From NCBI GenBank assembly GCA_001799995.1, contig MGUK01000070.1:9056-73055 (forward strand): a DNA stretch of 64,000 nucleotides. Reading direction: 5' to 3'. Made by a program: the position numbers and the translations under genes. The stretch comes from Elusimicrobia bacterium GWF2_62_30 (lineage in GTDB: Bacteria; Elusimicrobiota; Elusimicrobia; Elusimicrobiales; UBA9959). Shown here piece after piece: positions 646 to 19,938 of the stretch. The notes beneath the pieces were generated by a model, which saw only the letters and a program-made list of their open reading frames with translations, made no database searches and had not been told where the DNA came from. How positions within the stretch are numbered: position 1 is the stretch's first letter; every line of letters starts with the position of its first letter.

Positions 646-1329
646 CTATTCGGACTTCATCAGCGATATCTCGATGCGGCGGTTCTGGGCGCGGCCCACC
701 GGGGTTGCGTTATCGCCTATGGGGCGGTTCTCGCCGTAACCTATGCCGGCCAGGTTCTTGGCCGGGATGCCCTGTTCGGCGAAGAAGAGGAGCACGCTGT
801 AGGCGCGGGCCATGGAAAGCTCCCAGTTGGACTCGTACTTGCCGCTTCTTATCGGCACGTTGTCGGTGTGGCCTTCGATGATGATATCGTTGGGGACCTT
901 CTTGAGCTCAGCGGCTATGGGCGCCAGCACCTTCTTAGCCGGCTCCTTGAGGTCCGCGTGGCCCGAAGTGAAAAGCACGCCCTCGGTAAGCACCAGCTTC
1001 ACCTTGCGCTCGTTGGACTGGATGGACACCAGGTTGGCCAGGGAGTCGTTCTCCTTCAGGGTGTCTTCCACGTTCTGCTCCGCCGCCTTGGCCTTGGCCC
1101 GGTCCACCACCTTCTGGTCCTTTTTGCCGCCGAACGCGCTCTGGATATTGCTGAGCGATTCTTCGTATTTCCGGCTCTTGGTCTTATCCTGCTTGGCGAC
1201 GGCGAAGGAGAACATCATGAGGAAAAAGATCATCATGTAGCTCATCAGGTCGCCGTACGTGATCGCCCACAGCGCGCCCTTGTTGAGCTGGTTTTCCAGT
1301 TCCTCCCTGCGGTTTCGGTAGACGCCCAT
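646..1329 (-). CDS. motB: MotB-like stator protein (N-terminal TM helix with conserved Asp, C-terminal OmpA-like peptidoglycan-binding domain)
   Basis: ALWAITYGDLMSYMMIFFLMMF plug/TM region with the invariant Asp. C-terminus EGHTDNVPI...NWELSMARAYSVLLFF...GYGENRPI...NRRIEI is the OmpA/MotB signature. Last gene of the motA operon. Confidence 0.75.
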   Translation of the reverse strand: MGVYRNRREELENQLNKGALWAITYGDLMSYMMIFFLMMFSFAVAKQDKTKSRKYEESLSNIQSAFGGKKDQKVVDRAKAKAAEQNVEDTLKENDSLANLVSIQSNERKVKLVLTEGVLFTSGHADLKEPAKKVLAPIAAELKKVPNDIIIEGHTDNVPIRSGKYESNWELSMARAYSVLLFFAEQGIPAKNLAGIGYGENRPIGDNATPVGRAQNRRIEISLMKSE

Positions 1330-1330
1330 T

Positions 1331-2908
1331 TCAACGTTCCTTGAAGATGTCCCTGAATTTTTCTTCCATGCCGGCCTTTATCTCGCGCAGGCGCGATCCC
1401 TCGGCCTGCAGCGTCTTAAGGGTGGAGGCCATGGTCCCGAACTGGCGGCGCACGACGTCCCCCGAAACTCCGCCGGCTTTTTCCAGCTGCAGCGGGTCCA
1501 CTTCCTTCAGGAAGCCGGCCAGCGCTTTCTCGTAGCCTTCCAGCTTGCCGACGATCTCGGCGAGGGAGGAGCTGAAATTCTCGACGAAGGTGGCGGAAAG
1601 CAGCGCGTCCGCGTATTTGGCGCCGAACTTGTCGAACCGGGCGTCGTTCTCGGCCTTCACGGCGGAGGCCAGATCCGAGTTCATCGCGCGGATCTCCGAC
1701 TGCAGCCGCCCGGAAAAATCCTGCAGGGCCTGGGCCTGGCGGCGCGCCGCTTCGTCCAGCGCGTCCTGGACGCCCTCGGCCTTGAGGATGTTCGCCTGCG
1801 CTATCCGCTCGAACTCCAGCGTCTTTTCCGTCGCGAAGGACGCCTGCTCGCGCAGGAACTTCCTGGACTCGTCGGTGGACGCGGCGAGCTCGCGGCGCAG
1901 CGCTTCGGTTTCGGCGCCGACCTTGCTGCCGATTATCTCTATTTCCTTGCGCACGTAATTCTCGAACACATCTTTGAAGGAGGCGGAGCTTTCCTTTATC
2001 CCGCCCATCATCTCCTGGCGCGACGCTTCCTGGGCGTCGGCGCGGCGGCGCCACTCCTCGCTCATGCGGGCGAAGAACTCTTCCTGCGAGGCGCGGACCT
2101 CGCCGGCCTGCGATGACGCTGAAAGTTTCTGCATCCCGGCGAGCATTTCGGCGCGCAAAGCATCGATAGCGGCGGCCTGGGCGCGGGACTGTTCCTCGGC
2201 ACGGCGGGCGAACTCCTGCTGGGAAGCGCGCAGTTCGTCGGAGGGCTTGCTGTCGGCAAGCCTGGCCTCCAGGGAAGCCAGCCTGGCGGTAAGCGCGTCC
2301 AGGGCCGCCGTGGTGGAGGAGGAGCTGCGGTCGGCGTCCTCGCGGCGCTTGGTCTCCAGCGCCAGCACGGAGGAGTAGAACTCCATCAGCTTCTTTTCCA
2401 GCTCTTCGGCGCGCGTCCAGGCGCGCTCGAGCTGCTCGTGCATCTGCCGGTCCATCTCCGAATATTTCTGCTGGTCCCGCACGGCTTTGAGCAGGTCCTC
2501 TATCTCGCGGCGGGCGCTGATCTTGGATTCTTCTATATTGCGCAGCTGCGACGCGGACATCGCCGCCGACTGGCTGAAATCGGACAGCCTGCGGTCCATC
2601 TCCTCGAATTTGCGGACGAGCATATCCATCTCCGGTATGCGCGCCGGCGGAGGAGGCGGGGCCTGCATATACTGCTGCGGCGCGCCCGGGGCCGGCGCGG
2701 CGGCCTTGAGCTGGGCCACGATGTTCTTTTCAAGCGCGTCTATCTTAAGTTTGAGGGCGGCCAGCGCGTCGGAGTCCACCGCCGGCCTGGGAGCGGCCGC
2801 CGGCGCGGGCGCGGGCCTGGGAGCGGCCGCCGGCGCGGGCGCCGGGGCCAGGCTTCCGAAGATGGAGCCCTTCTGGGTCCCGCCAGAACCGGTGGAGCCT
2901 AAAGCCAT
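1331..2908 (-). CDS. Long coiled-coil protein with Pro/Ala-rich N-terminus, function unknown
   Basis: 525-aa ORF. Its start overlaps the upstream stop by 1 nt (TAATG) and its stop abuts the motB start. Heptad-like Glu/Arg/Ala/Leu-rich sequence throughout, no enzymatic motif. Confidence 0.6.
   Translation of the reverse strand: MALGSTGSGGTQKGSIFGSLAPAPAPAAAPRPAPAPAAAPRPAVDSDALAALKLKIDALEKNIVAQLKAAAPAPGAPQQYMQAPPPPPARIPEMDMLVRKFEEMDRRLSDFSQSAAMSASQLRNIEESKISARREIEDLLKAVRDQQKYSEMDRQMHEQLERAWTRAEELEKKLMEFYSSVLALETKRREDADRSSSSTTAALDALTARLASLEARLADSKPSDELRASQQEFARRAEEQSRAQAAAIDALRAEMLAGMQKLSASSQAGEVRASQEEFFARMSEEWRRRADAQEASRQEMMGGIKESSASFKDVFENYVRKEIEIIGSKVGAETEALRRELAASTDESRKFLREQASFATEKTLEFERIAQANILKAEGVQDALDEAARRQAQALQDFSGRLQSEIRAMNSDLASAVKAENDARFDKFGAKYADALLSATFVENFSSSLAEIVGKLEGYEKALAGFLKEVDPLQLEKAGGVSGDVVRRQFGTMASTLKTLQAEGSRLREIKAGMEEKFRDIFKER
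2784..2843. repeat. 30-bp tandem duplication (2 units, 29/30 identical) inside the coiled-coil gene
   Basis: ggcctgggagcggccgccggcgcgggcgc occurs at 2784-2812 and again at 2814-2842. It encodes the duplicated decapeptide PRPAPAPAAA in the N-terminal low-complexity region. Confidence 0.8.
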
Positions 2909-4665
2909 TACTTACCTCCCTTCGCCGCGGGCGGCTGCGGCGGCACCGAAGGTTTTCCCGGCTGCTGGGCGGGGGCCGGAGGGGCCCCGGGAGACGGCGC
3001 AGGGGGCTGCGGCGCGCCGGGCGCCGCGGGAACGGCCGCGGCTGCTTCGGGCCCCGGCAGGGAAGGCTGGGCGCCGGGCGCCGCGGCTGGCTGCGCTTTG
3101 AGCGGGTTGGCCACGCGCCCGTCCCGTACAAGCTTCATGGCCGTCAGCACTACGGCTTCCACCGCGCGCTCGGTCTTCTCCGGAGAGGGAGCGCCGTACT
3201 TCATGGTCTGCTCCAGCATCATCCAGGTCTTTTCCGTGAGCTGCGCCTTGAGTTTGTCCTTGAAGTCCTGGTCGAAATCCCAGAGCGCCATGGCCCAGTC
3301 CTCTATCTTCACGCTGGTAGCCAGCACGGAAAGGTCCTTGTCCGAGAATTTCTTGATGTCGTCCGGCAGGAAGATGCGCGGGCGCACTTTTTTCGCCACG
3401 TCCGGGTGGCGGGCTTCCAGCTGGGCCAGCATATCGCGTTTGGCCTTCAGGCTCACCTTGTCCAGGGCGTCTATCACCATGTTTACGCCGCCGAACGCGC
3501 CCGCCAGGCGCTTTTCTATCTCTTCCTTGATGGTCGATACCACATCGGGGTCCACGAAGCGCATACTGGCCATATTGGCCATTACTTCGGAAGAAACTTC
3601 CGTGGGGAGCATGCGCAGGAACTCGCTCTTCGCCTCTTCCGGCAGGTGCCCGGCTACCAGCGAAATATTCGCGGGGTCCTCACCGGACATAAGATTCACA
3701 AGGAAATCCACCTGCTCAACCTTGACGTTGAACATAGATTCGGCGTCCATTTCGATCTGGGGATGCCGTTCCTTCCTCTCCGTGATGTCCAGCTCCAGCT
3801 TGCCGCCGCCGCCCACGCCGCCCACGCTGACCCCTCCCCCTCCTCCTCCTCCCCCGGGGGCGCCTCCGGGGCCTCCGGGCCCTCCGGCTCCGCCTTTACC
3901 CAGGTCCATGGTGATCTGGTGGCTCTGCTGGGCCTTGGCCATCATGTTCATGGCGCCGGCCAGCTTCAGGAAGCCTACGGAGACCACCATCATCGAAACT
4001 ATGCCCATAAGGGTAAGTACACTGTATTTAAATATAAGGCCCACGGCTTCCGGGGTATACCAGATGGTGCGCCAGACCGGGGCGAAAGGCGTCTTTATCA
4101 CGGCCAGGTCGTCGCCGCGCTTGGCGTCCAGGCCCAGGACCTCCGAGACCACGGAGCGCACGTTCTGCGCGTCCGCATCGCTCATATTCTTATTAACAAC
4201 TACTGTTACTATTAATTTCTTTACAAAAGAGGCCGGGAAGATCAACTGCTTCTGGTACGACTGGTTTTCCGCCTCGGCGTTCATGGAAGGAAAGCCGGGC
4301 AGGAGGTATTCGTTGAAAGGCTGGCCCTCGGTGGAAGGGTTCTGCCACTTGAACATTTCGCCCGCGGCGCCATCCGCCGGCTTTTCGGCCCCGCCTTTGA
4401 CGATCTGCACCTGCTCGGTGCGCGTAAAGTCCATAGAGGCCTGCACCACCACCTTGGCCTGGTTGGGCCCCAGCAGCTTCAGCAGCACCTCGTCTATCTT
4501 TATCTCAAGGGATTTCTCGTAGCGGGCCTTGTCGTCCAGCGGCAGGCTCTGCGCCGTCAGCGCCGGGGCCGCGAGAACCTGCAGAAAAGACAGCAAAAGA
4601 GCGGCCGCCAGGATGGTCGTGACCTTCCCGGGGCGTTTGCAGTTGCTGAGAGCCGTCTTTTCCAT
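2908..4665 (-). CDS. FliF-like (YscJ/FliF ring-building) N-terminal half fused through a TM helix and a Gly-rich linker to FliG-like middle/C-terminal domains
   Basis: N-half: signal/TM, then KVVVQASMDFTRTEQ and LIVTVVVNKNMS...VLGLDAKRGDDLAVIKTPF (the FliF ...RGD.v.V...pF pattern), then a TM helix. After GGAGGPGGPGGAPGGGGGGGG the C-half follows the FliG layout: ISLVAGHLPEEAKSEFLRMLP..., RPRIFLPDDIKKFSDKDL, ALWDFDQDFKDKL, GAPSPEKTERAVEAVVLTAMKLVRDGRV. Confidence 0.6.
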   Translation of the reverse strand: MEKTALSNCKRPGKVTTILAAALLLSFLQVLAAPALTAQSLPLDDKARYEKSLEIKIDEVLLKLLGPNQAKVVVQASMDFTRTEQVQIVKGGAEKPADGAAGEMFKWQNPSTEGQPFNEYLLPGFPSMNAEAENQSYQKQLIFPASFVKKLIVTVVVNKNMSDADAQNVRSVVSEVLGLDAKRGDDLAVIKTPFAPVWRTIWYTPEAVGLIFKYSVLTLMGIVSMMVVSVGFLKLAGAMNMMAKAQQSHQITMDLGKGGAGGPGGPGGAPGGGGGGGGVSVGGVGGGGKLELDITERKERHPQIEMDAESMFNVKVEQVDFLVNLMSGEDPANISLVAGHLPEEAKSEFLRMLPTEVSSEVMANMASMRFVDPDVVSTIKEEIEKRLAGAFGGVNMVIDALDKVSLKAKRDMLAQLEARHPDVAKKVRPRIFLPDDIKKFSDKDLSVLATSVKIEDWAMALWDFDQDFKDKLKAQLTEKTWMMLEQTMKYGAPSPEKTERAVEAVVLTAMKLVRDGRVANPLKAQPAAAPGAQPSLPGPEAAAAVPAAPGAPQPPAPSPGAPPAPAQQPGKPSVPPQPPAAKGGK

Positions 4666-4680
4666 AGCCGCCTTGCCGCC

Positions 4681-5421
4681 TTAGCCGAGGTATGACTGGA
4701 GCCTGCGCTCCACCACCATGGGGATGCTGCCTTTCATTATTTCCAGGACGCCTTCGAGGATCATCGCCTTAAGCTTGATCTGGGCCACCATGCGCGAGCG
4801 TATCTTGCCGGCTATCGGGGTACAGACCATGCTGGCGAAGAAGATGCCGTAGAAAGCGGAAGTGATGGCCGTGGCCATGGCGGGCCCCACGGAGTCGGGA
4901 TCGGAGACCTGTTTGAGCACGCCGATTATGCCGATCAGCGTTCCCAGCAGGCCGAACATCGGGGACTGGATGCCGAAGGTGCGGTAGACGTTGGCTATTT
5001 CATTGAGTTCGTCGGCGCCCTGGTTTATCTCCAGCTCGATGACGTGTTTCACGAAATTGGAATCGTTGTACTCCAGCGCGGCCAGGGAGACGCGCGCCAG
5101 GAAGCCGTTGGCATGCCTGGGGTCCGCTTCCCGCAGCGCGGAAAGGCCGGTGGCGCGGCACTGTTCGGCCAGGCCCACCATTATCGGGATGGTGCGCTGG
5201 ATCTCCGCCGTTTCGTCGGCGAACATCAGCGAGCGCAGTTCCGTGACGGACTTCACCAGGTACTTGAAAGGGGTGTTGATGAGCATGGAGATACTGCCGC
5301 CGCCGAGCACGACGAAGACGGCGTGGAAGTTCACCAGGGAGGATTCGAGCTGCCCTGTCTGTACGCCCACCACGATGAACGCGATGAACGCGACTATCCC
5401 GAGAACTGTGGCGAAGTCCAT
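4681..5421 (-). CDS. motA: MotA/PomA-type stator proton-channel protein (MotA/TolQ/ExbB family)
   Basis: 246 aa with four predicted TM segments. C-terminal MFGLLGTLIGIIGVL...GPAMATAITSAFYGIFFA matches the MotA/ExbB channel core. First gene of the four-gene module. Confidence 0.8.
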   Translation of the reverse strand: MDFATVLGIVAFIAFIVVGVQTGQLESSLVNFHAVFVVLGGGSISMLINTPFKYLVKSVTELRSLMFADETAEIQRTIPIMVGLAEQCRATGLSALREADPRHANGFLARVSLAALEYNDSNFVKHVIELEINQGADELNEIANVYRTFGIQSPMFGLLGTLIGIIGVLKQVSDPDSVGPAMATAITSAFYGIFFASMVCTPIAGKIRSRMVAQIKLKAMILEGVLEIMKGSIPMVVERRLQSYLG

Positions 5422-5592: not shown

Positions 5593-6534
5593 TCATGAAG
5601 TAAAAGGTATCTTGAAATAGAAAGTGGACCCTTTGCCCAGGCCCGGGCTGGTGGCCTTTATTATCCCGTTATGCCCGCGGATGATCTCGCCGGCGATGGA
5701 AAGGCCCAGGCCCCAGCCCTGCTTGCGCAGTTTCTCGTCCTTCTGGTGCTTGGCCTGGTAGAATTTCTCGAAGATCAGCGCCGTCTCGCTGCGGTGGATG
5801 CCGATGCCGGAGTCCTTAACGTAGGCGCAGGCCTTGTTCCCCTCCTGGCGCAGGGTGACCTCCACGCGCTTGCCCACCGGTGTGAACTTGATGGCGTTAT
5901 TAATAAGATTCATCAGAACCTGCGACAGCCTGAACCGGTCCCCGGTGATCATGACGCCCTCGGGCAGCGGGTTGGCCACGAACTCCACCCCGCGCTTCTG
6001 CGCGTTGATGGTCATGGCGGGCAGGATGTCCCGGGCCACGTACGCGAAATCGAAAAGGGTCTTTTCCATCTTGAGCTTGCCGGCCTCGATCATGGCCAGG
6101 TCGGTGAGGTCGGCGATCAGGTGGCCCAGCTGGTCGGTGGAGCCCACTATGTTCTTGAGGTACTGCGCCTCTTTCTCCCCCACGTTCTTCTTCATCAGCA
6201 GTTCGCTGAAGCCCCTGATGGAGGCGAGCGGGGTGCGCACGTCGTGCACGACCATCGACAGGAACTTGGACTTCATATCGTTGAGCCGGCCCAGCTCCTG
6301 GTTGGACAGGGCCAGCCTGGACGTGAGGATCTCCAGGTCCTGCGAGCGCTGGAACACCTGCGTCTGCGCCAGGGCTATCTCCATCACGTACTGCTTTATC
6401 AGGTTCTGCGAGAACTGCTCGCGCCTGCTGAAAGAGCTGTTCTGCATGAAGCCCGTCACCTGCATGACGAATATTGCGCCTGCAGCCAGGAACATGAGGA
6501 GCATCGGCCCGAGAGCTACTATCGCGAATTCCAT
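5593..6534 (-). CDS. Membrane-anchored sensor histidine kinase (HisKA + HATPase_c)
   Basis: N-terminal TM helix, coiled coil, H-box FLSMVVHDVRTPLASIRGF, N box LMNLINNAIKFT, G boxes DSGIGI and GWGLGLSIA. Confidence 0.85.
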   Translation of the reverse strand: MEFAIVALGPMLLMFLAAGAIFVMQVTGFMQNSSFSRREQFSQNLIKQYVMEIALAQTQVFQRSQDLEILTSRLALSNQELGRLNDMKSKFLSMVVHDVRTPLASIRGFSELLMKKNVGEKEAQYLKNIVGSTDQLGHLIADLTDLAMIEAGKLKMEKTLFDFAYVARDILPAMTINAQKRGVEFVANPLPEGVMITGDRFRLSQVLMNLINNAIKFTPVGKRVEVTLRQEGNKACAYVKDSGIGIHRSETALIFEKFYQAKHQKDEKLRKQGWGLGLSIAGEIIRGHNGIIKATSPGLGKGSTFYFKIPFTS

Positions 6535-6575: not shown

Positions 6576-6953
6576 TCAGGCGGCCCCGAGGATCCTCCGC
6601 TCCAGCACCCTGACCCTCGCCACCAGCACCTCGTTGGCGAAAGGCTTCGCCAGGTAGTCGTCGGCGCCGCTGTCGTAGCCCTCCACCTGGTCCGTGACCG
6701 CGGAGCGCACCGTCATCATCAGCACGGGCAGCCCGGCCAGGCTGTTGCTCTCCCTGATGAGCTTGAGCAGCTCGAAGCCGCCCATCTCCGGCATGTTCAC
6801 GTCCAGCACGGCTATGTCCGCCCCCTCCGCCTGCAGGGCTTCCCAGGCGAGCTGCCCGTTCTCGTGGGCGGAGACCTCGAAGCCCTCGTCCTGCAGGATC
6901 TCGGAAAGCAGCATCCTGAAGTTGTCGTCGTCGTCGGCTAAAAGCACTTTCAT
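6576..6953 (-). CDS. Stand-alone CheY-like response-regulator receiver domain
   Basis: 125 aa. MKVLLADDDD acidic pocket, phospho-acceptor context IAVLDVNMPEMGG, PVLMMT, YLAKPF. No output domain. Confidence 0.85.
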   Translation of the reverse strand: MKVLLADDDDNFRMLLSEILQDEGFEVSAHENGQLAWEALQAEGADIAVLDVNMPEMGGFELLKLIRESNSLAGLPVLMMTVRSAVTDQVEGYDSGADDYLAKPFANEVLVARVRVLERRILGAA

Positions 6954-7015: not shown

Positions 7016-8758
7016 TTAGTTCCAGCCCTGCGCGTCCATGAACTGGCGGGTCACGGTGTCGGAGGGGTTGAGCTCCATCACTTTCTCGTAGGCCTTGCGG
7101 GCTTTCACCTTGTCGCCCATCATGTAGTAGGCGGAACCAAGGCGGGTCCAGCCCATGGGGTTGGTCTCATCGAGGAGGACCACTTCTTCGCATTCCTTGG
7201 CGGCCATGTCGAACTGCTGGATGTAGAAGCCCTTGGCGGCTTTCTTGAGCTTCTCTTTGAGCAGGGCGGCTTTGGGCATGATCTCGTCGCGGCGGACGCT
7301 GTTGCGGGTCAGGTCGCCCAGGTTGTAGAGCAGCTCTTCGAAGAGGGCGTCGCCGCGGGGATTCTCGCCGAGGGCCGCGTGCGCCAGCAGGAAGGCTTTC
7401 AGCTCGCGGCCTTCGATGTAGGAGACCACCGCTTCGTGCGCGACGTTGGACTGCTCTTCGCTCTTCTGGAAGATCTTCTCGCGGACGGGGGTCGCTTTGA
7501 GCTGCAGGCGCTTGTTGAGCTTCTCGAGCCTGTCGGCTTTGTCGCCCCACGCGCCGTTCTTCAGCTCGGGCTCCAGGTTGAAGGCCTTGTTCAGGTTGTC
7601 GACCGCCAGGGTGTATTCGCGGGAGTCAACGTTCTTGCGGGCAAGCTCGACATAGTCATTGGCGTAGAGCTTGAGGGCTTCGATCTTTTCCTGGGGGGCG
7701 AGGATCGCGGCGCGGGCGACGCGGGCGGTGGCGCCGGCCAGGGGCTGCTTCGCGCGGGAAGAGCCGAAGCGGACGGTCGCGCCGAGCTTCTGCATGGAGC
7801 CGAGCTCGCCGAAGGGAGACATTGAGTAGTCCAGGTCCATGAAGGAGAGGCGGAAGCCCACGCCCAGGCGAAGGCCGGAACCGATGTCCTGGCCGGAAAC
7901 GTAGCCGCCGCGGACGGAGAGCAGCTGGAACATGAAGTACTCGGCGCCGAGGTTCACTTTGTACTTGTCGTAGTTGGAGATGGTCTGGTCGAGAGAAACG
8001 GTCAGCGTGTGCGCGCCGGCGGGATGGGAGATCCAGGCCAGGCCCAGGGTCTCGGACTGGGGAAGAGGGAAGGCGTCCTTATCGAACTTCATCGAAGTGC
8101 CCAGGTTCTTGACGGAGAGGGCGACGCGGAATTCCTGGGCGGGGATGTTCTTCATCCAGTACTTGGAAGGGCGGATGTGGTAGATGGCGCCCAGGTCGAT
8201 GGCCATCGCGCTGGCGGAGGCGCTGTCGAGCTTGGAGGAGATGCTCTTCACGTTCACGCCGACGTTGAGGACGGGGCGCTCGATCTCGTCTTTAATAAAC
8301 GTGCGCGCGTAAGAAGCGGCGATGGAAGTGTCGGAAGCCTGCAGCTTGCGGGTCGCCGCGCCGGCCGCGTCGTAGCCCTGGAAAGGGGCGACGCTCTGGC
8401 GCGTTATATTAACGCCGAGGGTGGAGCCGTAGCGCAGGGGATACGCGAAGGAAGCGAACTGGTTGGTCACGTCGGCGAAGGAGGCGTTGTGGGTGGCGGC
8501 CAGCTCGGGCACTTCGATGCTGGCCAGACCCGCCGGGTTCCACCAGGCGGAGTAGGCGTCCTGCGTGACGGCGGTGTAGGCTTCGCCCATCGCGGTGCCG
8601 CGGGGGCTGGGATCGAATTTCAGGAAGGCGGCCGACGTGGTGCCGGCTTCACCGGCGGAAACGCGAACAGCAAAAAAACCGCAGGCGGCGATGATTATCG
8701 CGGCCGCTGCGGCAAGAAGTTTTTTGGTGTTCGCGAGGTTCATAATATTTACATTCAT
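7016..8758 (-). CDS. PorV/UPF0164-like outer-membrane beta-barrel fused to a C-terminal TPR region (tentative)
   Basis: Signal peptide, then AAFLKFDPSPRGTAMGEAYTAVTQDAYSAWWNPAGLA, which resembles the PorV/PorQ-family N-terminal motif. Alternating beta-strand-like sequence to about residue 330, then TPR-like repeats (...GSAYYMMGDKVKARKAYEKVMELNP). Confidence 0.5.
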   Translation of the reverse strand: MNVNIMNLANTKKLLAAAAAIIIAACGFFAVRVSAGEAGTTSAAFLKFDPSPRGTAMGEAYTAVTQDAYSAWWNPAGLASIEVPELAATHNASFADVTNQFASFAYPLRYGSTLGVNITRQSVAPFQGYDAAGAATRKLQASDTSIAASYARTFIKDEIERPVLNVGVNVKSISSKLDSASASAMAIDLGAIYHIRPSKYWMKNIPAQEFRVALSVKNLGTSMKFDKDAFPLPQSETLGLAWISHPAGAHTLTVSLDQTISNYDKYKVNLGAEYFMFQLLSVRGGYVSGQDIGSGLRLGVGFRLSFMDLDYSMSPFGELGSMQKLGATVRFGSSRAKQPLAGATARVARAAILAPQEKIEALKLYANDYVELARKNVDSREYTLAVDNLNKAFNLEPELKNGAWGDKADRLEKLNKRLQLKATPVREKIFQKSEEQSNVAHEAVVSYIEGRELKAFLLAHAALGENPRGDALFEELLYNLGDLTRNSVRRDEIMPKAALLKEKLKKAAKGFYIQQFDMAAKECEEVVLLDETNPMGWTRLGSAYYMMGDKVKARKAYEKVMELNPSDTVTRQFMDAQGWN

Positions 8759-9174: not shown

Positions 9175-9891
9175 TCAATCAACCTCAGTATTTTCATCAC
9201 GATATCGCACTGCTGAGGCATTTTTTGCACCTTTTTGCGGGCCTGGTTTCTTTTTAAAAAGAACCTTCGGCGGGATCTTAAAATCCGCCTGCAATTTCTT
9301 CAGGAATTCAGCCCCCCCCGCCGGACGCCCGTTAGATAAATGTTCCTGGATCCCGGAGACCATCTCTTTGCCGACATCCCCGGAAAGGAACTCGTTCCAA
9401 TTCCCGATCAGCTGCCCGACTCCGGAAACATTGACGAACCCGTCGTCCTTGTTGCGCATATGGGCTCTCGCGCTGCTCCAGCGATAATCCTCCGGCTTTT
9501 TCACGAGCTTAGCGCGAACTGGGTTAAGTTCAATATACCTGGTCGCCGCCAGGAGATACCGTTCATCCATGGCGAACGACGAGAAACGCTCCTGCCACAG
9601 GTGCCCTTTCCAGCCCTCGCGGAAGTTTACGTGGAGGGTATATCTCCGGTGCGCCTCCCCTATCGCCAGCCGCAAGCTTGTTTCATCCTGAGGAACAAGG
9701 ATCAGGTGAACATGGTTGGGCATCAGGCAATACCCCCACACGTCTACCCCCCGCTTCTGGCACCATTCCCCCATCAGTTTTAGGTAGGTGCGATAATCGT
9801 TTTCCGTAAAAAAAACCGGCTGCCGCCTGTTCCCTCGCTGGGTCACATGATGCGGATACCCCGGGATAACGACACGCGCAATTCTTGGCAT
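9175..9891 (-). CDS. REP-associated/IS200-like tyrosine (HUH, Y1) transposase
   Basis: MPRIARVVIPGYPHHVTQRGNRRQPVFF..., HUH motif in CLMPNHVHLIL, catalytic-Tyr region RYIELNPVRAKLV..PEDYRWSS. This is the typical RayT/Y1_Tnp layout. Confidence 0.8.
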   Translation of the reverse strand: MPRIARVVIPGYPHHVTQRGNRRQPVFFTENDYRTYLKLMGEWCQKRGVDVWGYCLMPNHVHLILVPQDETSLRLAIGEAHRRYTLHVNFREGWKGHLWQERFSSFAMDERYLLAATRYIELNPVRAKLVKKPEDYRWSSARAHMRNKDDGFVNVSGVGQLIGNWNEFLSGDVGKEMVSGIQEHLSNGRPAGGAEFLKKLQADFKIPPKVLFKKKPGPQKGAKNASAVRYRDENTEVD

Positions 9892-13679: not shown

Positions 13680-14992
13680 AGAACACCGCAACGGAAATCC
13701 TGAACCCGCTGCCGGGCGTAACAATTCACGCCGACCGCGCGCGCCGCAGGGTGAGCGTCCGCGTCAGGCCCGGACCCGCCGCCCACGGCCCGCTCCGGGA
13801 ATTACTCTATCGCGTCCTCAACGCCTACGAAAAGCGCTTTACCGTATCCATAGCGGGAGTTCCCTTCTGCTTCCTGCCCGACGCCGCGGACCATATTACG
13901 GCACAGCCCGGGACTGGCGCGGGCGGGCGCCTGAATATCTGCCGGGACTGCCGCCTGAGGCACGCCTGCCCCGGGCCGGGCGGCCCGTTCTTCCGCCGCC
14001 CGGACGCCGGGCTAAGGCCGGTGCTCGCGGTCCCGTCGGAAATAGTCTTCGAGGTCAACCGCAAGTGCAACCTGGCCTGCCGCGTCTGTTCGTCCAGGCA
14101 CCTGCAGGAAGAGCTCAGCCTCCCGCGGGTAAAGCGGGAACTTGCCCGCGCCCGACGGCTGGGGATAAAGAACGTCCGCTTCACCGGCGGTGAGCCGTTC
14201 CTCCACCCGCGGCTCCTTGAAATGCTTTCGGCGGCCAGGAAGAACGGGTTCTACGTCCTCGTGAACACCAACGCCACGCTGCTGACCCCCTCCCTGATAA
14301 AAAAGGCTGCGCCCCTGATGGACAACGTGCTGGTCTCGCTGCAGGGCTGGGACGCGGCTTCGGACGCCGCGGAAACGGGCGCGGCCGGCCTTTTCGCCGC
14401 CAAGCTCCGGAACATAAAAGCGCTGCGGCGCGCGGTGACTACGCTGCGTTTAGGCACTGTGATTTCCGCCGCCCTGCCCGGCGTCCTGGACAAATATCTC
14501 GGGCTGGCAGCCGGGCTTCAGGCCGACATCTGGGAGCTGTACCGGCCGATGGCCGGCGCCTCCCCCGGCCGGGGCCGGGAAGTAACCCCCGCGCTTTTGC
14601 GCGGGCTGGCGGACCGCCTGGAAACCGCCGCCGGGACAAAGCCGCAGGTGCTTTTCGCCAACCCGGCGCCGCTCTGCCTTTTTCCCGCCAGGCAGGCGCC
14701 GCTCTTTCTCGGCGCGCGCTTCGACGACGGGCATACGCGGCTGGTGCTGGACCCGCGCGGTTTCTACAAGCCCAGTTATTACATACAGAAGGACCTGGGC
14801 CGCGACCTCATGGCGGCCTGGAACAGCCCCTGGCTGAAAAAGCTGGATAAAGCCGGGTACGCGCAAGGCTGCCGGGCCTGCGTTTTCCGCCTGCGCTGCC
14901 TTGGCGGCAGCCGGTTCCTGGCCGGCGCGGACGGCGCGCGCCGCGGCGGGCGGGACCCCTGGCTGCGCAGCGGTTTGACAGCACGGAAGTAA
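13676..14992 (+). CDS. Radical SAM enzyme with an N-terminal Cys-rich extension and a SPASM/twitch-like C-terminus
   Basis: The ATG at 13676 overlaps the upstream stop (ATGA). Core CNLACRVC and FTGGEPF. The CxxCx5CxG motif occurs twice (CRDCRLRHACPG near the N-terminus, CRACVFRLRCLG near the C-terminus). Confidence 0.75.
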   Translation: MKNTATEILNPLPGVTIHADRARRRVSVRVRPGPAAHGPLRELLYRVLNAYEKRFTVSIAGVPFCFLPDAADHITAQPGTGAGGRLNICRDCRLRHACPGPGGPFFRRPDAGLRPVLAVPSEIVFEVNRKCNLACRVCSSRHLQEELSLPRVKRELARARRLGIKNVRFTGGEPFLHPRLLEMLSAARKNGFYVLVNTNATLLTPSLIKKAAPLMDNVLVSLQGWDAASDAAETGAAGLFAAKLRNIKALRRAVTTLRLGTVISAALPGVLDKYLGLAAGLQADIWELYRPMAGASPGRGREVTPALLRGLADRLETAAGTKPQVLFANPAPLCLFPARQAPLFLGARFDDGHTRLVLDPRGFYKPSYYIQKDLGRDLMAAWNSPWLKKLDKAGYAQGCRACVFRLRCLGGSRFLAGADGARRGGRDPWLRSGLTARK

Positions 14993-15047
14993 AATTGGAG
15001 AATGGATTCCGGGCTGACGCCGGGCCGGCGGACAGCTCCCACCTAAT

Positions 15048-17378
15048 ATGAAAATCGCCTTTTTAACCCCCTCCCCGACGGTGCTCAAGCATGACTGGTA
15101 CCGGGACCTGCTCTGGCAGAAAGTGGGCATCCCCAACCTGGCCGGCTTTCTCAAGCGGGCCGGGTTCCCGGACATCACCCAGTACGATTTCAATAACCAG
15201 ATCTGCCGCGCCTACGAGAAGACCCCGGGGAAAGTCAGGCTGATGCTCTATGCCGACGAGGCTTCAGTGGCCGCCTTCCTGGGCGGGAAGACCAAAACCC
15301 CGGGAGCGCGCGAGATAAGCAGGCAGACGGCGTTCTTTATCGACGAGCTCGGGGTTAAGGAACATGACCTGTTCGGGATCTCGCTGAGCCATTTCCTCGG
15401 CGACAACAGGGAGATAGATCTCGGGATCCGCCTGGCCGAATGCCTGGCCAAGGCGCTCAAAGAACGCTTCCCGGGCGCCAAGATCATGCTTGGGGGCATG
15501 CAGAACATGTCCGGCCAGTTCCAGCGCGACAATTATAAAAAGATGCTCAGGGACTGCCCGGAGATAGATTACGCCGTCTGCGGCGAAGCCCACGCCGCCA
15601 TGCTGGAGCTCTGCCGCGCCGTAGAGGCCGGACGCGAGTTCAGGGGAACTACGCAACTGAACATAGAAAAGGCGGGCGCAGGCCTCCTGATACAAGGCGG
15701 GATCACCGGCAAGATGGATGACGCGCACAGCTATTATTTCGCCCCCCGGCTCGCCGGGGAGGTTAAGGACCCCTCTGTTCCTTTCGGCTTCCCCGCCTAC
15801 GACAAAGCCAACAGCCGGGACTTCAGCTACACCGGCCGGAGGATCAGGGAGTTCTACCATCTGCCGCCGCCGCTGGCCAGGGAGGAGAAGCGCTTTGCGC
15901 CCGACAACTACCTGACCCTGCAGGTGAGTTTCAGCGAAGGCTGCAATTTCAACTGCCTGTTCTGCAGCAACGCCGGCAGCGGGGTGTTCGCGCTGGACCT
16001 CGACGAATCCATACGGATGCTGAAGATCTTCCGGGACGAGCTGGGCTGCCGCCATTTCCTTTTTTACAATCCGAATTTCAACCCCACCTATAAATACGCC
16101 CGCGCCTTCCTCGAGCGCATAATCAAGGAGAAGCTGGACATCCTCTGGGCGGACTGCTTCAACCTGCGCAACATGGACGGCGAAATGATCGCGCTGATGC
16201 GCGAAGCCGGTGTGATCAAGGTGGTAGCCGGAGTAGAATACCCGACGCCGCGCATGCTAAAGTACATCAACAAGGGCATTACCGTCGACAAGATAAACCG
16301 CAACCTGGAAGACCTGCACAAGGCGGGCATCTGGAACCACGTCCTGCTGATAACCGGCATGCCCACGGAAACGGCCGCCGACATAAAGGAGCTGGAAGCC
16401 TGGCTCCGGGACACCAAGGACCTGATAAACGCCTATACCGTAGGCTCCTTCCACATGGCGGACGGCTCGCCGTTCAGCAAGGACCCGGAAAAATTCGGGT
16501 TCAAGCTTAAAGACGCCATGAAGCTCTACTGCCAGACGGAGTTCGACGAGGAAGGCGGGCTGGCCTGGCGCGAGAAAGCCAGGCAGAACGAGCTTAACAA
16601 CCGGCACATACGCCGCTATATCGACGACCTGAAGGGCAGCCAGAAACCTACCGCCTCCAGGATGGACGATTCCCACCTGCTGATGTACCTGTACCGCGTA
16701 CTGGGGCACGGCCGGAAAAAAGAAATTGAGCGGCTTTATGAGGACGCCTATACGGTGAACCCTCACATAGCCGAGTCCTACGCGCACCTTAACTCCCAGG
16801 TCCGGCTGCCCTCCTCCGGGCTTAACGCCGCGCTGCGCCGCGCGGGAGTGTCCATTGAGCTGGAGGGCAGCACGCCGGAGAACATAAGCTTCAGCCTGGG
16901 CAAAGGCGCCGCGCGCCTGGGCTGTTCGGTCATGGCCAGGAGCGAGGCCACCCTGATCAACCCCGGCGACGACCGCGTGCACGGCGATTTTTTCCTGCTC
17001 ACTTCGCAGGAAACGGACATGAAGGACCGCTATAACCGGGAGCTGGCGGAACTGCTGGGCTCGGCCGGGGGCAGGCTGGTAACGGAGGGTTCAGAGCCGG
17101 AGAAAGGGCGCTTCACGCTGCGCCTGGACGCGAAGAGCGGCAGCGCCCGCTTCGTGGTCTCGCTGCGCTCAAGGCCGCCCTCATGCGGCTACGCCGTGAT
17201 CTCGGGAAAACCCGGCAGGGAATTGCTGGGCCGCGCGGCGGACCTGCTGCTGGCTTCGGCCTCCGCCGGGAGCGGAGCGGGGTCGCTTGCCGGCGACCTC
17301 ACGACGGTAAAGCGCTGCCTGCCCGAAGTGCTGGCCGCCGCGGAAAGCTGGCCGGCGGCGAAAAAAGCTATTCGATAA
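15048..17378 (+). CDS. B12-binding-domain radical SAM enzyme with a long C-terminal extension
   Basis: N-terminal Rossmann-like segment (MKIAFLTPSP..., IMLGGMQ) typical of the cobalamin-binding domain of class B rSAMs, then FSEGCNFNCLFCSN. About 250 C-terminal residues are unassigned. Confidence 0.75.
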   Translation: MKIAFLTPSPTVLKHDWYRDLLWQKVGIPNLAGFLKRAGFPDITQYDFNNQICRAYEKTPGKVRLMLYADEASVAAFLGGKTKTPGAREISRQTAFFIDELGVKEHDLFGISLSHFLGDNREIDLGIRLAECLAKALKERFPGAKIMLGGMQNMSGQFQRDNYKKMLRDCPEIDYAVCGEAHAAMLELCRAVEAGREFRGTTQLNIEKAGAGLLIQGGITGKMDDAHSYYFAPRLAGEVKDPSVPFGFPAYDKANSRDFSYTGRRIREFYHLPPPLAREEKRFAPDNYLTLQVSFSEGCNFNCLFCSNAGSGVFALDLDESIRMLKIFRDELGCRHFLFYNPNFNPTYKYARAFLERIIKEKLDILWADCFNLRNMDGEMIALMREAGVIKVVAGVEYPTPRMLKYINKGITVDKINRNLEDLHKAGIWNHVLLITGMPTETAADIKELEAWLRDTKDLINAYTVGSFHMADGSPFSKDPEKFGFKLKDAMKLYCQTEFDEEGGLAWREKARQNELNNRHIRRYIDDLKGSQKPTASRMDDSHLLMYLYRVLGHGRKKEIERLYEDAYTVNPHIAESYAHLNSQVRLPSSGLNAALRRAGVSIELEGSTPENISFSLGKGAARLGCSVMARSEATLINPGDDRVHGDFFLLTSQETDMKDRYNRELAELLGSAGGRLVTEGSEPEKGRFTLRLDAKSGSARFVVSLRSRPPSCGYAVISGKPGRELLGRAADLLLASASAGSGAGSLAGDLTTVKRCLPEVLAAAESWPAAKKAIR

Positions 17379-17865
17379 GGACGAGCCCGTAGCAGTCCTG
17401 CCCGGACTTCCTGTCCCCCAGAACTTCCAGGTGCATGCCGCTCTTGCGCACCGTCGCAAAGACGTCTATCCCGCACGCTTCCATGGCGGGGCGGGCTTTC
17501 TCCGGGTGCCGGCAGGCCGGCGCGCAGGACCGGCACAGGGAACACGGGCCGGCCGCCAGCGCGAAAGCCTTATAGAAGCCGCGCAGGAAAACCTCCCGCT
17601 CCAGCAGCGGGGCTATGCGGCGTATCTCGCGGCACCGCTCAGCCCGGAACAGCAGCCCGTACTTATACCCGTCCAGCAGTTTACGGGTCACTTCCGGGGC
17701 GGGCGCGTGAGGCGGGCAGGTGAGGGCGGCCCCGAACCTGTCGCAGCCGTACCGGCAGCGCCATCTCACCCATTCGGCGGTAACTACGGAGCCGGCGCGG
17801 ATTATCTTCGCCTTGGCGGCGCCGAGAGCTTCGGCCTTTTTGAGGAATTCGGAGTATTTTTTCAT
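17368..17865 (-). CDS. DUF2284-like predicted metal-binding (Cys-rich) protein
   Basis: CRYGCDRFGAALTCPPHAP and CSLCRSCAPACRHPEKARPAMEACGIDV match the C..YG....CPP / C..C..C....RP.mEa.GiDV pattern I associate with DUF2284, a family often found next to corrinoid enzymes. Confidence 0.6.
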   Translation of the reverse strand: MKKYSEFLKKAEALGAAKAKIIRAGSVVTAEWVRWRCRYGCDRFGAALTCPPHAPAPEVTRKLLDGYKYGLLFRAERCREIRRIAPLLEREVFLRGFYKAFALAAGPCSLCRSCAPACRHPEKARPAMEACGIDVFATVRKSGMHLEVLGDRKSGQDCYGLVLIE

Positions 17866-17887
17866 CTTTCTCCCGTTACGCCCGCCG

Positions 17888-19237
17888 TCAGATGCGCGCT
17901 TTTACCGCGATCAGCTTGCGGATCGCGGCCTTCATCTCCTGTATCTCTGAAAAACCGGCCGAACAGAAATGGCCCACCCAGTCTTCGAACATCCGCCTGA
18001 AATCGAAGATATCGTCGCCGGCGTATTTCTTCTCCACGCCGAGGAGCTGGTGCCAGACGGCCGAGCCCGGGATCATGTTCATCGTGTGGATGATGGCCGT
18101 TTCCCAGGCCTGCGCCGGCAGGTCGAGGCTGTTAAGCTCCCGGAAAGTCGTCTTCAGGCTTTTAACGCTCTCGCCGGGAGCGCCGGCCAGCAGGTACATC
18201 TCCGGGACCACGCCGGCTTTGGCCAGGGTCAGTATCCCCCGCTTGTTGGTCTCGCAGGTGCAGCCCTTGTGCAGGCGGCGCAGGATCCCGTCGTCGAATG
18301 ATTCAACGCCGAGTATGGCGTTGCGGACGTTTATCGAGCGCAGGGACTTCGCGCTGCGCTCCGTCACGTCGTCCAGCCGCAGCGCCACTTTCATCACCGG
18401 CTTTTCCCGGCAGGCTGAGGCGCCCGCGCAGAAGTCCCGGAACCATTCTTTCCCGCCCATAAAATCGGCGCTGGAATCGTACAGGCCGCGTATCCCGTAG
18501 CGCTTCGTCAGGCGGGCAATGCGCTTCCAGAGCAGGTCCGGGGAGATAGTGCGATAGCCCCTGTCCTTGATGCTGCAGAAAACGCAGCGCCCGGCTTTGG
18601 AGGCCCGCATGCAGCCCCGCTGCGTGATAAAAGGGATGATCCTCCCGGCGTACGGTGACTGCCGCGAGAAATATTCCTCCAGGTCGACGAGGGAATAGTC
18701 CAGCTCGGGCAGTTCGGAGGCGTCGGGCGTCGCCACCGGGTTTTCCACGATCTGCCCGCTGCCGGCGCGGTAGACGAGATTGTTTATTTTCGAAAAAGCG
18801 GCGCCTTTCACCAGCTCCAGCAAAGCCCGCTCGCCGTCGTACTGCACCACCGCGTCGACGCAGTGGTCCGCGGAGCCGGGCCCCCTGTTGAGCAGTATCT
18901 CCCGTTTGAGAGGCGTGGCGTAGTTCCCGCCGAAAACGACGAAGGCGCCGTTGCGCTTGAGCAGCCTGGCATAACCGAGGTTATCGGCGTAAGTGAGGAA
19001 AATGGGGCTGAAGCAGGCGAAATCGTACCTGCCGGTCTTCAGCCTTTTCGCGAATTCCTCCCCCCCGAGTATCTGCTGGTCCAGGATGTCTATCCTGAGC
19101 CCGGGCAGGGCCTTCCTGAGATACGAGCCGAGGAAAAGCGCCCAGAGCGGCGGCATGGTGCCCCAGCCCTTTCTGCGCAGGAGAGTGCTCTTCAATACGG
19201 CCGGGGCGTAAACGAACGCGATCTTTTTAACGCGCAT
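17888..19237 (-). CDS. B12-binding-domain radical SAM enzyme with atypical Cys spacing
   Basis: N-terminal MRVKKIAFVYAP...VVFGGNYAT cobalamin-domain-like segment. The cluster motif reads GCMRASKAGRCVFCS (Cx8CxxC) instead of CxxxCxxC. Confidence 0.7.
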   Translation of the reverse strand: MRVKKIAFVYAPAVLKSTLLRRKGWGTMPPLWALFLGSYLRKALPGLRIDILDQQILGGEEFAKRLKTGRYDFACFSPIFLTYADNLGYARLLKRNGAFVVFGGNYATPLKREILLNRGPGSADHCVDAVVQYDGERALLELVKGAAFSKINNLVYRAGSGQIVENPVATPDASELPELDYSLVDLEEYFSRQSPYAGRIIPFITQRGCMRASKAGRCVFCSIKDRGYRTISPDLLWKRIARLTKRYGIRGLYDSSADFMGGKEWFRDFCAGASACREKPVMKVALRLDDVTERSAKSLRSINVRNAILGVESFDDGILRRLHKGCTCETNKRGILTLAKAGVVPEMYLLAGAPGESVKSLKTTFRELNSLDLPAQAWETAIIHTMNMIPGSAVWHQLLGVEKKYAGDDIFDFRRMFEDWVGHFCSAGFSEIQEMKAAIRKLIAVKARI

Positions 19238-19275
19238 ATTGAGATTGTATTAAACTATGCAGAGCGGCGCGGGCT

Positions 19276-19938
19276 TCACTCCACCGCGCGCCGCAGTTCC
19301 CAGTGCCTGTCGCCCTCTACGCGCAGCGAAAGCCCCTTCAGCCCGGCCTTCCGGGCGAAGGCCGCGGCCTCTTCCGGCAGCAGCGCCGCCAGCAGCGAGC
19401 CGCGCAGCAGTTCCCGCTGGCGGGGCGTATCGCCGCAGCAATGCCCCATGCGGTCGGCCAGTTCCCGGGCGGTCCGCGGGCGCCGGAGGTCCCTGATGAG
19501 AACGCCGCCGCCGGGGCGGAGCAGGCGGGCTATCTCCCGGAACAGCAGGCGCGGGTCCGCGATATGATGCGCCAGGTTGTTGCAGACGGCGAAATCGAAG
19601 GAGCGGGGCGGAAGGCCGGTGGCTTTGGCGTCGGCCCGCACCAGGCGTATGCAGCCGGAAAAGCCGCTGCGGGCTATCCGCCCCGAAGCGAGCTTCAGCA
19701 TCGGCAGGGCCATTTCCACGGCCGTGACCCGCGCCCCCTTTATGCGCCGGCAGATCTCGACGGGGATGCCGCAAGGGCCGGCGCCGAGGTCGATCAGCCC
19801 GCCCCGGGCGAAGCCGAGCTCTTCCGACAGGACCCTTACGAATTCCATCTCCGCGGCCGCGTGGTCGATCTTCCCGTATTCGCGGGCGTCGCGGTCCGTC
19901 TCCATCAGTTCGGGCTCAAGCACCCTTTTCAAGGCCAT
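19276..19938 (-). CDS. Class I SAM-dependent methyltransferase
   Basis: Motif I LIDLGAGPCGIP, acidic post-I residue (VTAVEMA), motif III-like FDFAVCNNLAHHI, LLRPGGGVLI. Confidence 0.8.
   Translation of the reverse strand: MALKRVLEPELMETDRDAREYGKIDHAAAEMEFVRVLSEELGFARGGLIDLGAGPCGIPVEICRRIKGARVTAVEMALPMLKLASGRIARSGFSGCIRLVRADAKATGLPPRSFDFAVCNNLAHHIADPRLLFREIARLLRPGGGVLIRDLRRPRTARELADRMGHCCGDTPRQRELLRGSLLAALLPEEAAAFARKAGLKGLSLRVEGDRHWELRRAVE

Follow-up and report, generated by a model that had tools for sequence, protein, structure and literature searches.

The locus and its genes

We analyzed a 64,000-nucleotide stretch of DNA (contig MGUK01000070.1; its full length is called the window below) from a groundwater bacterium, Elusimicrobia bacterium GWF2_62_30. 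Seven collinear genes on the minus strand of the window encode a PorV-like outer-membrane protein with tetratricopeptide repeats (PorV-TPR), a receiver protein (REC), a histidine kinase (HK), MotA, a fusion of FliF and FliG domains, a coiled-coil protein and MotB. To our knowledge, FliG with MotAB, the textbook torque generator, is known only from inside flagella; at this locus the flagellar torque core stands in a non-flagellar, outer-membrane-linked and kinase-linked context. The seven genes are as follows.

7016..8758, minus strand: outer-membrane protein of the PorV/PorQ family, 580 aa, with a beta-barrel at residues ~40-328 and periplasmic TPRs toward the C-terminus; its gene opens the conserved unit (NF033709; TPR_1/TPR_2 at 536-567)
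6576..6953, minus strand: stand-alone CheY-like receiver (REC-only) response regulator, 125 aa (Pfam Response_reg, 5e-30)
5593..6534, minus strand: membrane histidine kinase, 313 aa, with one N-terminal transmembrane helix and no sensor domain, then HisKA and HATPase_c (Pfam)
4681..5421, minus strand: flagellar-type MotA/PomA stator A subunit, 246 aa (PDB alignment, NCBIfam, residue conservation)
2908..4665, minus strand: FliF-FliG fusion "rotor" protein, 585 aa (PF08345, PF14841, PF01706; AlphaFold2 and Foldseek)
1331..2908, minus strand: cytoplasmic all-helical (coiled-coil) protein, 525 aa (AlphaFold2; no Pfam or NCBIfam family)
646..1329, minus strand: MotB-type stator B subunit, 227 aa, which has D27 in its transmembrane helix, a plug and an OmpA-like domain for binding peptidoglycan (Pfam)

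The last four genes join precisely as the initial annotation of this DNA had it: the TAA of motA is followed after 15 nt by the ATG of the fusion gene, the fusion and coiled-coil genes share 1 nt (TAATG), and the coiled-coil and motB genes meet as TGA-A-ATG, with 1 nt between them. HK and motA are separated by a gap of 171 nt, for which there was no Rfam match, a folding z-score of -0.19 and no consensus promoter or terminator on the minus strand; a regulatory RNA or terminator in this gap was dropped as a candidate on these results. The gene ileS lies 90 nt downstream of motB, a neighborhood found in near relatives only. The initial annotation had described a minimal four-gene module followed by ileS. 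The position of ileS stands, but the restriction to four genes does not, as synteny shows that the upstream HK, REC and PorV-TPR genes belong to the unit as well.

A shortened FliF is fused to the middle and C-terminal domains of FliG

Three Pfam families matched the fusion protein above their gathering cut-offs: YscJ_FliF_C (PF08345) at residues 62-194 (2.3e-10), FliG_M (PF14841) at residues 322-389 (3.8e-12, 46.7 bits) and FliG_C (PF01706) at residues 415-518 (1.2e-13, 51.7 bits). PF01514, which covers ring-building motifs (RBM) 1 and 2, had no match in the fusion, and a full FliF with RBM1 and RBM2 is thus not present. The sole match to FliG_N (PF14842) was sub-threshold and overlapped the FliG_M region; a 33-residue Gly-rich linker occupies the site of this domain. 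The parts of the protein, with residue numbers of the fusion, are the following (pLDDT, predicted local distance difference test).

4558..4623, minus strand: N-terminal hydrophobic segment (residues 15-36), first transmembrane helix (TM1) or signal anchor (sequence; helix in the AlphaFold2 model)
4084..4539, minus strand: periplasmic ring-building domain (residues 43-194), RBM3-like (PF08345, AlphaFold2, Foldseek, PDB search)
3895..4026, minus strand: second transmembrane helix (~residues 214-233), then a near-invariant juxtamembrane helix (228-257) (alignment of 35 sequences, AlphaFold2)
3796..3894, minus strand: Gly-rich flexible linker (residues 258-290) in the place of FliG_N (sequence; pLDDT <50)
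3496..3720, minus strand: FliG middle domain (residues 316-390), with EDPAN replacing EHPQR (PF14841, Foldseek 4qrm)
3118..3450, minus strand: FliG C-terminal (torque) domain (residues 406-516), torque helix at ~474-497 (PF01706, Foldseek 1qc7)
2911..3108, minus strand: Pro/Ala-rich C-terminal tail (residues 520-585), weakly conserved (sequence; pLDDT <50; no column consensus in the 35-sequence alignment)

An AlphaFold2 model of the fusion was built on 35 homologs and compared with the PDB by Foldseek. The model had high confidence for the combined FliG middle and C-terminal region (FliG_MC) and contained a single alpha/beta domain in the periplasmic part. This domain folds as alpha-beta-beta-alpha-beta and is broken by an insertion of ~60 residues (82-143), disordered in the monomer, which sits where the beta-collar lies in FliF; the topology is that of FliF RBM3 plus beta-collar. 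The PDB matches of the model were limited to structures of FliG_MC, of FliG_M and of the RBM3/collar S-ring of FliF: FliG_C matched 1qc7 at a TM-score of 0.93 (root-mean-square deviation 1.0 A), FliG_MC matched 1lkv at an E-value of 2e-10, FliG_M reached TM-scores of 0.82-0.85 (4qrm, 0.82), and the S-ring structures 6sd1, 7cg7 and 8z4d were matched at TM-scores of 0.50-0.56 with E-values of ~1e-3. A sequence search of the PDB agreed on the domains (FliF 9yh6 at 1.9e-4). Thus, Pfam, the PDB search and the model with its Foldseek matches agree on the composition first proposed for this protein, a FliF region joined by a Gly-rich linker to the middle and C-terminal domains of FliG. Its FliF region had been described as a "FliF/YscJ-type ring-building region"; FliF is borne out, whereas YscJ-type RBM1/2 are not, the part being RBM3 and beta-collar (S-ring), and FliG_N is absent.

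Conservation is concentrated in particular segments of the fusion. The columns of the juxtamembrane helix (GFLKLAGAMNxMAKAQQSHQITMDLGKG) are invariant in the 35-sequence alignment, and the model has one long helix over residues 205-255. The FliG_M motif reads EDPAN in place of the FliM-binding EHPQR, and E329, P331 and N333 are invariant or nearly so in the same alignment. Three positions of the torque helix, K479 (E. coli R281), E485 (D288) and Q486 (D289), hardly vary within the family; K264 and R297 have no counterpart, their places being taken by W and S. The Gly linker is coded by in-frame 9-bp repeats at 3807-3887, and the coiled-coil gene has an in-frame 30-bp tandem duplication in its Pro/Ala spacer at 2780-2845 (2.2 copies at 94% identity in Tandem Repeats Finder). 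As a side observation, these low-complexity spacers of the two genes seem to vary in length by slippage.

The operon encodes a flagellar-type stator

MotA matched Pfam MotA_ExbB at 2.8e-19, and its residues 1-245 aligned over their full length with solved flagellar MotA/PomA (9luc, 2.6e-32; 8brd, 2e-29). Among NCBIfam models, PomA scored 141 bits versus 23 bits for TolQ; the scores lie below the equivalog cut-offs, which marks the protein as a divergent member of the flagellar type. The prolines of the third and fourth transmembrane helices, P154 and P202, were kept in 55/55 orthologs, and charge was widely kept at the other positions scored in the same set (R89 in 41/55, K/R97 in 52/55, D/E98 in 43/55 and D100 in 52/55). 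MotB matched MotB_plug (5e-12) and OmpA (1.5e-19), and its D27 was invariant in 42/42 orthologs. The "FIT" group of flagellar-type stators (Puente-Lelievre 2025) is reportedly marked by a MotA of full length whose cytoplasmic torque interface is expanded and whose third and fourth transmembrane helices have conserved prolines, and by a MotB with transmembrane Asp, plug and OmpA-like domain; the pair encoded here has these features. By every sequence criterion available, the MotAB pair of this operon would be a working flagellar-type stator.

The fusion is natural, under selection and part of a conserved unit

The homolog search returned >120 protein clusters at 90% identity, each of which carries these three Pfam domains and, where named, comes from Elusimicrobia. 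A profile search of 1.84 billion representatives gave 133 clusters at E<=1e-30; one of the 10 clusters looked up came from Candidatus Saganbacteria. All reading frames at the locus are intact, and ratios of nonsynonymous to synonymous substitution (dN/dS) against three relatives were 0.06-0.30 for all six genes tested (0.06-0.19 for motB and 0.21-0.28 for PorV-TPR), values that are approximate since dS is near saturation. Together with the recurrence of the architecture at 62 genomic loci, the clusters, intact frames and low dN/dS rule out a frameshift or assembly artefact, and the fusion is a natural one under purifying selection, as had been supposed at the outset.

We read synteny from these 62 loci and call the arrangement in the window type 1. 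Its order, PorV-TPR, (REC), HK, motA, fusion, coiled-coil, (second coiled-coil), motB, occurs in ~40 species. In type 2, PorV-TPR is followed by a single protein of 810-840 aa, then by coiled-coil, motA and motB. Type 3, found in the same genus as the window, has a surface protein of >2,000 aa, PorV-TPR, a 640-aa fusion, an 800-aa Pro-rich coiled-coil protein, motA and motB, and the giant upstream protein resembles proteins with a C-terminal sorting domain (CTD-like). The PorV-like gene is the one constant neighbor of the rotor gene across types 1-3, and at virtually every related locus of the three types it directly precedes the HK or rotor gene. Its product scored 144 bits against NCBIfam NF033709 (PorV_fam; cut-off 90), and the specific PorV and PorQ equivalog models remained below their own cut-offs. 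A close paralog of this protein (582 aa; phmmer 973 bits versus a self-score of 1284) is encoded as an orphan, away from any motor gene, on contig C95 of the same genome (G000; 139263-141011, minus strand).

The kinase is tied to the rotor in several ways. It matched HisKA at 2.5e-18 and HATPase_c at 1e-22 (Pfam), and its H-box and ATP-binding boxes were >90% conserved in 38 orthologs. In the 819-aa type-2 protein of locus L041, residues 1-310 were 51% identical to the window HK over the full length of the kinase, and residues 340-819 were 37% identical to the window fusion. Type-2 proteins hence unite HK and rotor in one chain, a Rosetta-stone fusion, which argues that the two proteins of the window are physical partners as well. 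The segment equivalent to TM1 is internal in type-2 proteins, between kinase and ring domain, and residues 15-36 of the window fusion are therefore probably an uncleaved transmembrane helix. The REC gene has the same position in the loci of the nearest relatives (L005, L006 and L039); other relatives carry REC genes upstream of PorV-TPR. Many relatives have further HK and REC genes next to the unit.

In types 1 and 2, the coiled-coil gene always comes directly after that of the rotor. Its product had no Pfam or NCBIfam family match, and its AlphaFold2 model is all helix; a conserved N-terminal KKDSIFS-type motif is followed by the Pro/Ala spacer, a conserved helix (104-175) and a variable rod. 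Homology to FliH, FliJ, FliM or a known family was considered and rejected, the PDB profile matches (apolipoproteins and one ZorA tail) being compositional only. Because its gene always follows the rotor gene, and because FliM/FliN are absent (see below) yet the surface motif of FliG_M is conserved, this protein is the best candidate for a FliM-like partner and probably takes the place of FliM/FliN beneath FliG_M.

Two side observations concern the surroundings of the unit. Just upstream of the PorV-TPR gene, at 9175-9891 on the minus strand of the window, lies a gene similar to those for repetitive extragenic palindrome (REP)-associated tyrosine transposases (IS200/RAYT-type), with the product MPRIARVVIPGYPHHVTQRGNRRQ...; close homologs occupy the equivalent position in the relatives' loci L006 (4740-5450) and L019 (3361-4035). 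In L019, five tandem paralogous genes follow directly downstream of motB (14808-19509); their products (190-345 aa) are almost the same at the N-terminus (MKTKITAVALIAVTAGVFAYTRPHNAVPSDLRDAVAD...), and the array was seen in one subclade.

Rotor and stator have paralogs that diversified together

The genome that the window comes from has three rotor paralogs (open reading frames (ORFs) with FliG_C, 476-585 aa) and exactly three flagellar-type MotA, two of whose genes adjoin a fusion gene. On contig C39 (95757-107686) we observed genes for a PorV-TPR protein (674 aa), a HAMP-type HK (442 aa), a 476-aa fusion and a coiled-coil protein that ends in an HATPase domain; motA, the third of the genome, and motB lie ~6 kb away on the opposite strand. 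Contig C94 (61025-65695) carries a 545-aa fusion, motA, two tandem motB-like genes and a 302-aa TPR protein. The FliG domains of both C39 and C94 are on very long branches.

Maximum-likelihood trees were built for the FliG_MC region and for MotA. Both trees had the same deep split, with types 3 and 4 and C94 on one side and, on the other, C39 with types 1, 1b, 2 and 5, and the same sub-pairs recurred in the two trees. By this congruence, stators and rotors have co-diversified. Furthermore, the canonical FliGs of flagellated Elusimicrobiota formed a clade of their own (100/99) between the fusion groups; by this topology, the fusions appear to be old paralogs rather than recent derivatives of the flagellar FliG of the phylum.

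The module is not part of a flagellum

We searched for flagellar genes with E. coli, B. subtilis, Caulobacter and Thermotoga as positive controls. The genome of the window (2.9 Mb, 84% complete) and four genomes of the same genus (94-100% complete, 3-5 fusion copies) had 0 matches to FHIPEP/FlhA. The rod/hook domain (Flg_bb_rod, PF00460) was absent from 20/21 genomes of the family, that of the window included, and both FliM/FliN (FliMN_C, PF01052) and flagellin (Flagellin_N, PF00669) were absent from 11/11 genomes of the genus. Across the phylum, ORFs bearing FliG_C were found in 87/251 Elusimicrobiota genomes (58/85 genera), with one to six in each. FlhA was found in 6/251 genomes, which include all five with a complete canonical FliG ORF (~340 aa) used for the tree.

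These searches bear out the initial annotation where it had noted the lack of other flagellar genes, and its suggestion of a stripped-down, MotAB-driven device unrelated to a filament fits a genome and genus that lack the flagellar gene set. The other option it had offered, a divergent flagellar paralog, holds in the evolutionary sense only. The module is not part of a flagellum, and an ordinary flagellum encoded elsewhere was rejected as its source, given that no FlhA, rod, FliM/N or flagellin was found in the genome or in genus members.

Components resembling a type IX secretion system elsewhere in the genome

Apart from the locus, contig C95 (112723-118140, minus strand) encodes a protein of ~1,805 aa with a signal peptide, which matched TIGR04189 (SprA/Sov) in three collinear stretches (143 bits, E-value 6e-42, cut-off 200). 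SprA-like ORFs of ~1,750-1,950 aa were present in 211/251 Elusimicrobiota genomes, reduced host-associated lineages included, and >25 PorV/PorQ-family paralogs were present in the genome of the window. These observations suggest an outer-membrane system akin to type IX secretion machinery (T9SS) outside the FCB (Fibrobacterota-Chlorobiota-Bacteroidota) group; no published account of such a system was found. GldL/GldM had no match in 11 genomes of the genus, nor in the control genomes.

A proposed non-flagellar rotor-stator machine of the cell envelope

On balance, we favor the reading that these genes specify an envelope machine of rotor and stator which is self-contained and non-flagellar, is driven by MotAB, and acts on an outer-membrane partner or senses load from it. 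In such a machine the fusion protein would assemble into a ring in the inner membrane, as FliF and engineered FliF-FliG fusions do, and peptidoglycan-anchored MotA5B2 units would use ion flow to push the torque helix of FliG_C. From the periplasmic collar, rotation or torque would reach the TPR arm of the PorV-like protein and, by way of this arm, surface proteins held by its barrel, and the output could be movement or tensioning of adhesins, or surface motility. The coiled-coil protein would substitute for FliM/FliN under FliG_M, and the kinase would sit on the rotor, where it might signal the load or state of the motor to the receiver, and thus sense surface or load, or might itself set the motor state. 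The linkage in type 3, a paralogous type of the same genus, of the rotor genes to the giant surface protein and then PorV-TPR speaks for this reading, as do the domain matches, the conserved ion-pathway and coupling residues, the lack of a flagellar gene set, the fixed gene order, the kinase-rotor fusion of type 2, the three rotors and three MotA with congruent trees, the low dN/dS and the rings that engineered FliF-FliG fusions form.

Several points weigh against this reading. All of the evidence is genomic, and ring, rotation and phenotype are inferred from it. A ring without an axle has no obvious route by which torque could reach an outer-membrane barrel, and there is no adhesin gene beside the type-1 module of the window. 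The collar region of the model has a pLDDT of <50, the RBM3 fold matches are modest (TM-score ~0.5), and just 2/5 of the classical charged residues of the torque helix are kept. Finally, charge covariation between MotA (89/97/98/100) and the torque helix of FliG showed no clean compensatory pattern across types: type-2 MotA is uncharged at positions 89 and 98, having lost R89 and E98, while K479 and E485 of FliG persist unchanged, and we dropped covariation as support for a canonical stator-rotor interface.

As a tentative extension, which we regard as possible but would not yet bet on, free-living Elusimicrobiota and at least Saganbacteria may possess an undescribed class of envelope-spanning rotary machine, with a homo-oligomeric fusion ring that lacks export gate and axle and is turned by co-evolved MotAB, mechanical coupling through PorV-TPR to surface proteins, and a rotor-borne kinase whose phosphorelay reads out motor load or sets motor state. 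The module would then be an old sister of the flagellar motor rather than a recent remnant of it, because its paralog types, with a separate kinase, a fused kinase or an adhesin link, are as distant from one another as from canonical FliG.

It is unlikely, in our view, that the module is a pure signaling device, in which the FliG-like ring and MotAB sense load, ion-motive force or envelope stress and the sole output is phosphorylation of kinase and receiver, with no work done on the outer membrane. Flagellar motors are load sensors, and the HK, which is sensor-less, is always adjacent to the rotor gene where it is not fused to the rotor (type 2) or to the coiled-coil protein (C39); the additional HK and REC genes beside the unit in many relatives point the same way. 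However, this explanation leaves unaccounted for the strict conservation of a PorV-like barrel with its TPR, the anchoring of the stator to peptidoglycan and the linkage of the sister type to a giant adhesin, and a sensor has no obvious need for three co-diversified rotor-stator pairs.

Distinctly improbable, we think, is a role as energizer of T9SS-like secretion or attachment, in which the module replaces GldLM/PorLM and drives PorV-type shuttles and a SprA/Sov-like translocon. The PorV/PorQ-family gene that is always adjacent, the divergent SprA/Sov-like protein and the CTD-like giant protein upstream in type 3 would suit such a role, as would the failure to detect GldL/GldM, in a search that had no positive control and whose negatives are accordingly uncontrolled. 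Yet the SprA match lies below its curated cut-off, and the SprA-like gene is distributed independently of the module (211/251 versus 87/251 genomes). Because it is also present in reduced host-associated lineages without a FliG fusion, the module cannot be the general motor of the SprA-like protein, and we lowered this candidate accordingly.

Decay from an ancestral flagellum, or an ordinary motor with a gene fusion in a flagellum encoded elsewhere, is very improbable: flagella do exist in the phylum, as shown by the six genomes with FlhA and canonical ~340-aa FliG, and the genome of the window is only 84% complete, but FlhA, rod, FliM/N and flagellin are missing from it and from 4-10 genus members (90-100% complete), the frames are intact and under selection, the family has expanded to 3-6 paralogs per genome, and the canonical FliGs form a clade separate from those of the fusions.

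If the envelope machine that we favor is real, the torque core of the flagellum is a portable module that works without export apparatus, rod or filament. This would bear on the stepwise origin of the flagellum, because ring and stator could have had a use ahead of any axle, and structural and single-molecule studies would gain a minimal rotor-stator system of two proteins. Moreover, it would account for the "enigmatic" motAB and fliG of non-flagellated Elusimicrobiota that are possibly surface-motile or magnetotactic.

Comparison with known systems

That motAB and fliG occur where flagellar structural genes are lacking has been published before, with their role called unclear or enigmatic, while the machine itself is undescribed. 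"Numerous homologues" of motAB and fliG, of "enigmatic" role, were noted in free-living non-flagellated Elusimicrobiota (Uzun et al. 2022 preprint, 10.1101/2022.07.08.499144), and "rotor proteins without filament" were reported in 11% of non-motile species (Philip 2025, PMC12199754). The genes of these two accounts are the same as ours, reported as KEGG-type hits only; neither account describes the fusion, its operon, the paralog types or the partner proteins (PorV-TPR, kinase and coiled-coil). Our search of the literature for the fusion architecture, the operon or its partners found no description, just passing mentions of motAB/fliG.

With the flagellar motor core, the module shares a homologous RBM3/collar, FliG_M and FliG_C, a full-length flagellar-type MotA, and a MotB with plug, Asp and OmpA-like anchor; in addition, residues of either charge are conserved on its torque helix and MotA loop. 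It differs in that the locus has no export gate, rod, hook, filament, FliM/N, FliF RBM1/2 or FliG_N, that FliF and FliG form one polypeptide with a Gly linker in which two of the five torque-helix charges are kept, and that it is partnered with a PorV-like outer-membrane barrel, a histidine kinase and a coiled-coil protein.

Fusions of FliF and FliG have precedents, both engineered and natural. Engineered fusions (PDB 8Z4D/8Z4G) form 34/35-mer rings (PMC11481574), and fusions in Salmonella are cited as supporting rotation (Francis 1992, cited in PMC4768692). In these Salmonella and Vibrio constructs, as here, FliF and FliG are covalently joined 1:1, and they indicate that the architecture can work; however, they contain full-length FliF and FliG_N inside a complete flagellum, whereas the protein of the window is minimal and belongs to a genome without a flagellum. 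The natural fusion of Chlamydiaceae consists of an RBM2-like part and a FliG_M-like domain only, is found together with an injectisome, FlhA and FliI, and lacks a MotAB of its own (Bergeron 2016, PMC4768692). It resembles ours as a shortened FliF joined to a FliG-like domain in a non-flagellated bacterium; in contrast, the fusion described here has RBM3/collar, FliG_M and FliG_C, dedicated MotAB and no FlhA.

The T9SS and gliding machinery of Bacteroidota (GldLM/PorLM motor, PorV shuttle, SprA translocon, SprB adhesin) is similar in coupling an ion-driven inner-membrane motor of the 5:2 type to outer-membrane PorV-family proteins and, as in our sister type, giant surface proteins with a C-terminal sorting-like domain. 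In that machinery GldLM acts via the periplasmic GldM shaft, whereas in the module of the window MotAB would act on a FliG ring, the PorV-like protein has a TPR arm of its own, and the SprA-like protein occurs across the phylum irrespective of the module.

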